Source: Escherichia coli
GTDB lineage: Bacteria > Pseudomonadota > Gammaproteobacteria > Enterobacterales > Enterobacteriaceae
Strand: one strand, 5' to 3'
DNA: 64,000 bases
Assembly: GCF_016903815.1 (NCBI RefSeq)
Contig: NZ_CP069973.1
Part shown: positions 3,001 to 6,000 of the stretch, piece by piece
How the letters are laid out: each line of letters starts with the position of its first letter
How positions within the stretch are numbered: the first letter of the stretch is position 1
Program-made: the position numbers

Positions 3001-6000
3001 TCAGGAAAATATGGGACGTTTTATCAATCAGAGGAAATATGTTACAGTTCAGCTTTGTATCAAATGACGTTGTTATGACTTACGACGGTGACAGCGGAGA
3101 ACAAATAATTTGGGTTTGGGAGAGTTTAAATAAATTTCAAACAGTATGCATTTCACGCATTTTTAACTTTCAACTCCAGGACTTGAGAAACCCACCGTCA
3201 ACCGTTCAGGATTTTAATGATTATGAATATTCCTTTAATTTTGGCACGCTTAATAATGAATACATAACAGTTCCGGGACGGATTCTAAGCATTAATCGAG
3301 ATGTCCTTATACATAAGTCCATCAAGCTTGAAAGGAAAGTATTTGCGTCAGAACGCAACGTCTCCATTTTTGGTCGGCTTTCAAAACTACTCGATCACAC
3401 TAATCCCATCATCATCGGAGGAGATAAGTCGGAAGCTATACCAAAAAGCGTATTCCAGGAGTTGCAAAGTAAATTCCCCAACACAGGGGAACTGGATCGC
3501 TATGCTAATGCAAGGGTTCACGCTATTCTCGCAGGTTATCTTGATGGTATGAAAGATGCTCGCGAACGGTATGAACATTACCTAAACAGAAAAACAGTGA
3601 TCAGAAAAACCGACAAACTGGATTTAGAAGTTTTAAATAAGCTCGAAATTGAGAAATATACACTCATAAGAGACATTATCCAGGATGCGTTGAATAACAA
3701 AACTAACTTGTCTGAAGATGACTGGCAGAGCCTGATGATACCCTTCATCACATTACTTTTTCCAAAATATATCAAGGTCCTCGAGAAGGTTAAAATTTTC
3801 GACTATTACTCTAATCCTTCGGCTAAAACAAATCGGTTTATAGACATTGCACTGGTGGATGCAAACGGCAACCTTGATATCATCGAAGTCAAAAAGCCGT
3901 TTGATGATAAGATCCTTCGCAAGACGCCCTATCGCGACAACTATATTCCTACATCAGAACTTAGCGGCGGTATTATGCAGGCTGAAAAGTATATTTTTCA
4001 TTTATCTAAATGGGGTGTTAAGGGTGAAAAAGAGCTTACGAATGCCTACAAGAATTCTCTGCCAGCGGGAATGTGTATTCGTATATCTAACCCAAAAGCC
4101 ATCATCATTGTCGGGCGCGATCAGATAGCGAACGGTAACATGACCGACGGTCAGTTGCTTGATTTTGAGATAATCAAACGTAAGTACGCCAACATGATAG
4201 ACATATTGACGTACGACGACCTGTTGCGTCGACTTAATAATACGATTGAAGCATTGAAAGGTTGAATGTCCATGAGGTTCACACCCACAACGGGGAGCAG
4301 GTCACTTCCTATTGTTTGATTGACATACCATAACGTCTGCTTTTGGCTCAAAGCAGACTGTCTGATTTGATAGCTTTTGGGCTATGTAAATTGTCAGTTG
4401 AAAAATGAGTGAGTACAAATCAGGACGGGCGGGCGAGTTGCCCGCCTTTTCTTTAATCTGTTGTTTCATCCACTGACCAGCCAGGTCAAATAGCGTCTCA
4501 TGCTCTGCACAACAGAAAATAGTTGCACCCATTAACCACGGAGTTAAACGGATGAGCGACTATCATCATGGCGTGCAGGTGCTGGAGATTAACGACGGCA
4601 CCCGCGTCATTTCCACCGTATCCACGGCCATTGTCGGCATGGTCTGCACGGCCAGCGATGCGGATGCGGAAATCTTCCCCCTCAATAAACCGGTACTGAT
4701 TACCAATGTGCAGAGCGCAATTGCAAAGGCTGGTAAAAAAGGCACGCTGGCGGCATCGTTGCAGGCCATCGCCGACCAGTCAAAACCGGTCACCGTTGTC
4801 GTACGTGTGGAAGACGGCACCGGCGACGACGAGGAAACGAAACTCGCGCAGACCGTTTCCAATATCATCGGCACCACCGACGAAAACGGTCAGTACACCG
4901 GACTGAAAGCCCTGCTGGCGGCGGAGTCGGTAACCGGTGTTAAACCGCGTATTCTCGGCGTGCCGGGACTGGATACCAAAGAGGTGGCTGTTGCACTGGC
5001 ATCAGTCTGTCAGAAGCTGCGCGCTTTCGGGTATATCAGCGCATGGGGCTGTAAAACCATTTCCGAGGTGAAAGCCTACCGTCAGAATTTCAGCCAGCGT
5101 GAGCTGATGGTCATCTGGCCGGATTTCCTCGCATGGGATACGGTCACCAGTACCACCGCCACCGCGTATGCCACCGCCCGTGCGCTGGGGCTGCGCGCTA
5201 AAATCGACCAGGAGCAGGGCTGGCATAAAACGCTGTCCAATGTCGGGGTGAACGGTGTTACCGGCATCAGCGCCTCTGTATTCTGGGATTTGCAGGAGTC
5301 CGGTACTGATGCTGACCTGCTTAACGAGTCAGGCGTCACAACGCTGATTCGCCGTGACGGTTTCCGCTTCTGGGGTAACCGTACCTGCTCTGATGACCCG
5401 CTGTTCCTCTTTGAAAACTACACCCGCACCGCGCAGGTGATGGCCGACACGATGGCTGAGGCGCACATGTGGGCGGTGGACAAGCCCATCACCGCAACGC
5501 TGATTCGCGACATCGTTGACGGCATCAATGCCAAATTCCGTGAGCTGAAAACAAACGGCTATATCGTGGATGCGACCTGCTGGTTCAGCGAAGAATCCAA
5601 CGATGCGGAAACCCTCAAGGCCGGAAAACTGTATATCGACTACGACTATACACCGGTGCCTCCTCTTGAAAACCTGACCCTGCGCCAGCGTATTACCGAT
5701 AAATACCTGGCAAATCTGGTCACCTCGGTTAACAGCAATTAAGGAGCCTGACCGATGGCAATGCCGCGCAAACTCAAGTTAATGAACGTCTTTCTGAACG
5801 GCTACAGCTATCAGGGCGTCGCGAAGTCCGTCACGCTACCAAAACTGACCCGTAAGCTCGAAAACTATCGCGGTGCGGGGATGAACGGCAGCGCACCGGT
5901 AGACCTCGGCCTTGATGACGATGCGCTGTCAATGGAGTGGTCGCTCGGTGGCTTCCCGGATTCGGTTATCTGGGAGCTTTACGCCGCAACCGGTGTGGAT

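Follow-up and report, generated by a model that had tools for sequence, protein, structure and literature searches.

A short segment of the Escherichia coli contig NZ_CP069973.1, positions 3837-3896 of the 64,000-nucleotide stretch analysed here (the window), was read in a first-pass annotation as the PD-(D/E)xK signature of a nuclease encoded by a cargo gene. Is this segment part of a genuine nuclease, or is it a chance resemblance in a protein of another kind? If a nuclease is encoded, is it of the Shedu type, which residues form its active site, and what kind of locus carries it? Here we answer these questions from the reading frame outwards.

The reading frame and its family

The segment lies in frame within an open reading frame on the + strand, 3039-4265, which encodes 408 amino acids plus the stop and has a GAGGA Shine-Dalgarno-like sequence a few bases 5' of its ATG. 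On translation, 3837-3896 gives residues 267-286, FIDIALVDANGNLDIIEVKK. The first-pass annotation had placed the segment correctly and in the right frame, and D274, E283-V-K285 and the downstream IIIVGRD are all at the positions it gave, but it listed 21 residues for the segment, the last of which, a proline, is residue 287 (3897-3899), one codon past the end.

By itself the bare PD-(D/E)xK pattern carries little information. When this protein is shuffled, the loose form D-x(6-20)-[DE]-x-K still appears 95% of the time, and the stricter form, a hydrophobic strand ending in D and later two hydrophobic residues followed by (D/E)xK, 3.5% of the time. The motif is raised above chance by profile and structure evidence. 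Alignment to nuclease profiles, which had been suggested as a check, gave a match of Pfam SduA_C (PF14082, formerly DUF4263) to residues 224-396, covering model positions 2-159 of 159 (E = 7.5e-33). The PADLOC SduA model PDLC04067 matches over the full length (1-407, E = 1.4e-219), and 15 further SduA models also match, making 16 in total. These two matches bear out the Shedu-type DUF4263 assignment. The protein is also identical at 407 of 408 residues to the chain of PDB 8PS4/8PS5, the 'Shedu effector protein' EcSduA of E. coli, and at 187 of its first 188 residues to 8PS6, so that the N-terminal domain with W25 and the DNA-contact patches is present. Its identity to a published anti-phage nuclease supports the further suggestion that it is probably an effector that cleaves nucleic acid.

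Database searches place the protein in a large family. A search of 1.84 billion proteins gave 722 representative homologues at E <= 1e-3. The PHROG match, phrog_18241 (2e-254), carries no functional label, and an NCBIfam search with the protein gave no match. RefSeq names the product of the identical locus 'Shedu immune nuclease family protein'. The gene and its domains are as follows.

3039-4265, + strand: sduA, which alone makes up a type I Shedu defence system, from the ORF call, PADLOC and PDB identity
3039-3473, + strand: N-terminal sensor domain, residues 1-145, containing W25, R106 and K116; paired in the tetramer, it would form a clamp that binds a free dsDNA end
3111-3113, + strand: W25 codon, in the N-terminal sensor domain
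3429-3431, + strand: codon of S131, the sole difference from the solved EcSduA chain (P131)
3474-3620, + strand: alpha-helical linker, about residues 146-194, with helices 149-164 and 174-187 in the model; limits from the EcSduA paper
3621-4262, + strand: DUF4263 / SduA_C PD-(D/E)xK nuclease domain, residues 195-408; Pfam match at residues 224-396 (nucleotides 3708-4226), with fold matches
3837-3896, + strand: the flagged segment, a beta2-turn-beta3 hairpin, residues 267-286, with motif II (D269) and motif III (E283-x-K285)
4101-4121, + strand: IIIVGRD, residues 355-361; the fourth core strand (354-357), then the invariant G359

No partner gene was found. Genes for phage tail fibre assembly and the tail sheath flank sduA directly, and the 1.8-kb cargo holds no other plausible ORF.

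Could the motif nonetheless be a chance pattern in a non-nuclease, or the gene a decayed remnant? The frequency of the loose pattern in shuffled sequences favours the first. The second draws on GenBank record AJ512677, the 'proviral Z-region' of phage P2-EC31, which annotates a 362-aa 'putative lysogenic conversion protein' without the C-terminal ~90 residues. Against both stand the overwhelming profile and structure evidence and catalytic residues that are invariant in 131 of 131 homologues. The truncation of the annotated ORF in AJ512677 results from a deletion of one nucleotide in a T-run, whereas the 408-aa ORF is intact here, and the corresponding gene of strain ECOR31 is 1227 nt long and functional as the defence gene PD-T4-8. 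Of the 52 complete E. coli genomes with the entire 1.8-kb locus, those listed first also match it at 100% nucleotide identity. The PF14082 match, the 407/408 identity and the T-run deletion led us to reject the chance or pseudogene reading, the probability of which is negligible.

We are close to certain that ORF 3039-4265 is sduA, a type I Shedu anti-phage system whose allele belongs with EcSduA and PD-T4-8, and that a P2-like E. coli prophage carries it as cargo (a 'moron') at its Z/fun locus. The flagged segment is the hairpin of its nuclease domain, and the protein would act by the end-nicking mechanism published for EcSduA. The identity, domain, fold, invariant residues and genomic context in this explanation come from the present analysis.

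The fold and its catalytic residues

A monomer model was built with AlphaFold2 on 128 diverged homologues (mean pLDDT 94.7). Its secondary structure consists of helix 226-240, strands 244-255, 264-274 and 278-284, helix 306-336, strand 354-357, helix 370-382, strand 387-390 and helix 392-407. The restriction-endonuclease-like fold that had been anticipated, with its alpha-beta-beta-beta-alpha-beta core, is thus predicted by the model. A Foldseek search with the model returned 8ps5_A (E 6.8e-69) and the Bacillus cereus Shedu structures 8ti8/8ti9 at about 1e-7 (1.7e-07), the latter over 167-172 core residues at 16-21% identity. Many nucleases of the restriction-endonuclease fold also match.

Conservation was assessed in 131 full-length representatives from the search of 1.84 billion proteins, with 30-58% full-length identity. 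The residues of interest are listed with the number of homologues in which each is kept and, where available, the published effect of its mutation in EcSduA.

3714-3716, + strand: E226, the glutamate of motif I, where the core helix begins; 131/131; E226A abolishes defence
3726-3728, + strand: Q230; 122/131
3843-3845, + strand: D269, motif II catalytic aspartate, aligned with B. cereus D249; 131/131; D269A dead
3858-3860, + strand: D274, at the hairpin tip, where beta2 ends; not catalytic; 118/131; Asn in B. cereus; outside the published active site
3885-3893, + strand: E283-V284-K285, motif III (D/E)xK; E283 and K285 131/131; E283A and K285A dead
3978-3980, + strand: Q314, motif IV, in the long helix 306-336; 131/131; alanine mutant dead (the paper writes both Gln314 and Glu314)

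Five of these residues, E226, D269, E283, K285 and Q314, are invariant, and E226 and Q314 are two further conserved active-site residues lying outside the flagged segment. In the same hairpin D280 is conserved in 130 of the 131 homologues. Downstream, G359 is kept in all 131 and R360 in 115, and D361 is variable.

The motif II aspartate is D269. The first-pass annotation had proposed D274, E283 and K285 as the catalytic triad; it was right about E283 and K285, but its aspartate, although inside the segment, is five residues away from the true one. Four lines of evidence bear on this. First, D274 is kept in 118 of 131 homologues, the remainder having N (7), T (3), S (2) or G (1). Second, in the profile alignment to B. 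cereus SduA, D269 pairs with the motif II D249 and D274 with an Asn; D249 of the paper is chain residue 251, and the ExK found at 266/268 of the chain is E264/K266 in the paper. Third, the register of the modelled hairpin would place 269 opposite 283, with 274 at the tip before the A275-N276-G277 turn, about five residues further on and on the other face. This pairing was read from the strand limits of the model, 264-274 and 278-284. An acidic residue on beta2 that faces (D/E)xK on beta3 across the hairpin would accordingly be D269 with E283/K285, not D274.

The fourth line comes from published mutants. In EcSduA the pocket contains Glu226, Gln230, Asp269, Glu283, Lys285 and Gln314 around Mg2+ density; alanine at E226, D269, E283, K285 or residue 314 causes loss of both defence and dsDNA cleavage, and D269A served as the nuclease-dead control (10.1101/2023.08.10.552762). 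Given the near-identity of the two proteins, the Mg2+ pocket of the protein studied here would be lined by D269 from beta2, by E283 and K285 from beta3, and by three residues outside the hairpin, E226, Q230 and Q314. As a variable residue at the hairpin tip that is absent from the published active site, D274 was rejected as a catalytic residue.

The triad taken from sequence alone therefore needs correction to D269/E283/K285, and a D274A mutant would not have tested catalysis. There is a lesson in this: a bare PD-(D/E)xK reading finds the right domain, but it may choose the wrong Asp when several share one hairpin.

The prophage locus

The genes and repeats surrounding sduA are those of a P2-like prophage.

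195-2219: P2 H-like tail fibre gene, upstream
2221-2748, + strand: P2 G-like tail fibre assembly gene (phrog_136 at 5.2e-80; RefSeq); left boundary of the Z/fun cargo locus
2801-2832, no strand: left arm of an inverted repeat, 32 nt, 84% complementary to 4336-4367; annotated as 'left inverted repeat' in P2-EC31 AJ512677
4336-4367, no strand: right arm of the inverted repeat, overlapping a terminator-like hairpin (4335-4358) just 3' of sduA; within a segment common to phage P2
4552-5742, + strand: P2 FI-like tail sheath gene (phrog_23 at 1.1e-158); right boundary of the cargo locus
5755-6273: P2 FII-like tail tube gene, downstream of the sheath gene

The cargo sits between G and FI and is atypical in composition, with a GC content of 37-42% compared with 53-59% in the downstream tail genes. 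It is bracketed by the imperfect inverted repeat 2801-2832 / 4336-4367, which matches the flanking repeats of AJ512677. Positions 4331-4550 are 93-96% identical to P2, Wphi and other peduoviruses, and 2750-4550 as a whole has 99.1% DNA identity to the P2-EC31 Z-region. The flagged segment itself has zero nucleotide differences from P2-EC31.

The whole locus is present in 52 of 5426 complete E. coli genomes (about 1%). Only part of the query is matched in a further ~900, which fits P2-like prophages with the same flank and other cargo. A consensus promoter scan found no + strand promoter 5' of sduA, and the -35/-10 annotated in AJ512677, which would fall near 2903-2931, failed the same scan. 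No Rfam family or tRNA was found anywhere in the window.

This placement agrees with the literature. P2 prophages are reported to carry Shedu at their Z/fun locus (10.1101/2023.08.10.552762), and the fun locus has been described as a second P2 defence hotspot (PMC9519451). The P2 hotspot treated by Rousset et al. (2022) is solely the other one, which lies between gpA and gpQ; Shedu and DUF4263 are not mentioned in their paper (PMC9122126).

Mechanism and known systems

The oligomeric state, end sensing, nicking position and phage range of the protein can be proposed from the literature on EcSduA, which differs from it at one residue. EcSduA is a 195-kDa homotetramer with a body built from the nuclease domains and two clamps built from the domains of residues 1-145 (10.1101/2023.08.10.552762). 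SduA here would likewise be a homotetramer with a body made of nuclease domains. Each EcSduA clamp is 17 A wide and admits only the end of a linear duplex, which is stabilised by W25, and W25A, R106A and paired patch mutants lose defence (10.1101/2023.08.10.552762). [quoted passage not shown]

Where would the bound DNA be cut? In EcSduA it is the phosphate at 5'-strand nucleotide 14 that faces the active site, and all linear substrates yield a ~13-nt product at either end; the backbone in the DNA complex is ~12 A from the catalytic centre, so that an activation step would be needed (10.1101/2023.08.10.552762). By analogy, the bound duplex would pass over the active site and the 5' strand would be nicked about 13-14 nt from the end. 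In vivo, EcSduA restricts linear fragments about ten-fold and does not restrict a circular plasmid, an effect that is gone in W25A or D269A (10.1101/2023.08.10.552762). Circular host DNA and plasmids, having no free ends, would be spared here too. Protection by EcSduA against T2 and T6 exceeds 30,000-fold and does not involve abortive infection; T6 phages that escape have uvsW mutations by which recombination-dependent replication is suppressed (10.1101/2023.08.10.552762). The protein studied here would be expected to block phages that depend on linear dsDNA ends, such as T2 and T6 with their recombination-dependent replication, without death of the host cell.

Many single-gene nuclease defences work via abortive infection. 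On that model SduA would be a toxin, a triggered nuclease that degrades host DNA and kills the infected cell. The EcSduA nuclease domain without its N-terminal domain is indeed toxic to E. coli, but cells with EcSduA survive T6 at an MOI of 5 and grow like uninfected controls, and the protein does not target circular DNA (10.1101/2023.08.10.552762). We consider an abortive-infection toxin extremely unlikely, and continue with end nicking.

What would such a mechanism mean for the phage that carries it? P2 DNA replicates in the form of monomeric circles, from which it is also packaged, and almost no free dsDNA ends are exposed in the cell. An end-sensing SduA might for this reason be a 'self-safe' weapon for a P2-like phage, and D280 and D274 might help in activation, when the DNA has to be brought across the ~12 A to the catalytic centre; we offer both ideas tentatively. 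If the first is true, SduA could be produced throughout lysogeny, and even when the prophage itself is induced, without self-harm, while competitors that use linear or recombination-dependent replication intermediates would be excluded.

The protein, its fold, catalytic residues, mechanism and prophage niche are already known from published work, and the related systems can be set out by increasing closeness. Most distant are NucS/EndoMS, N.BspD6I, FokI, NucC and McrC. These are PD-(D/E)xK nucleases with 8-18% identity over the aligned core and no detectable sequence relationship, and they differ from SduA in accessory domains, oligomers and substrates.

SduA of B. cereus B4264, the founding Shedu (8TI8/8TI9; Gu et al., 10.1101/2023.08.10.552793), has the same DUF4263 PD-(D/E)xK core and motifs, its D249, E264 and K266 aligning with D269, E283 and K285 here. 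It, too, forms a homotetramer, and its N-terminal region is inhibitory. That N-terminal domain is, however, unrelated to the one in our protein: the profile alignment to 8TI8 takes in only the linker and the nuclease domain, from B. cereus residue 147 onwards, so that homology does not extend to the N-terminal regulatory domain. Does the present protein nevertheless work in the B. cereus manner, in which an autoinhibited tetramer holds the motif II Asp off the active site and an active octamer makes internal double-strand breaks? The shared catalytic core would allow it. The non-homologous N-terminal domain and an identity of 16-21%, restricted to the core, argue otherwise. Full-length B. cereus Shedu shows negligible cleavage in vitro (10.1101/2023.08.10.552793), in contrast to full-length EcSduA, which cuts short linear duplexes to a fixed ~13-nt product and leaves circular plasmids intact in vivo (10.1101/2023.08.10.552762). 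A B. cereus-style mechanism is thus very unlikely, and end nicking of the EcSduA type is preferred. The E. coli Shedu of a preprint on T4 modification (10.1101/2022.06.16.496414) was taken to be a different Shedu; its key mutant, Q110A, fits no active-site residue here (Q230, Q314).

PD-T4-8 is a 1227-nt DUF4263 gene from ECOR31 recovered by functional selection against T4 (Vassallo et al. 2022, PMC9519451). It corresponds to ORF1 of the P2-EC31 Z-region and is, like the gene described here, a single DUF4263 gene; the high DNA identity over 2750-4550 includes the inverted repeats. PD-T4-8 probably sits in the fun-locus hotspot. AJ512677 differs by 15 substitutions over 1.8 kb, which result in T121N and S131P in the protein.

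The closest system is EcSduA of E. coli KTE10 (8PS4 apo, 8PS5 DNA-bound, 8PS6 N-terminal domain; Loeff, Walter, Rosalen and Jinek, 10.1101/2023.08.10.552762), which shares 407 of 408 residues, the domain order and the P2 Z/fun niche. W25, R106, K116, R154, Y181, E226, Q230, Y256, K263, D269, E283, K285 and Q314 are all present here. The one difference, S131 in place of P131, is in the N-terminal domain and is not among the residues that the paper names. Column 131 is variable in the homologues (E43, D19, P17, K11, S9 and others), and S131 appears to be an allele of the sensor domain at a position that varies freely. The window can be annotated with confidence as containing a P2-like prophage that carries Shedu, of the EcSduA/PD-T4-8 type, in the Z/fun hotspot.

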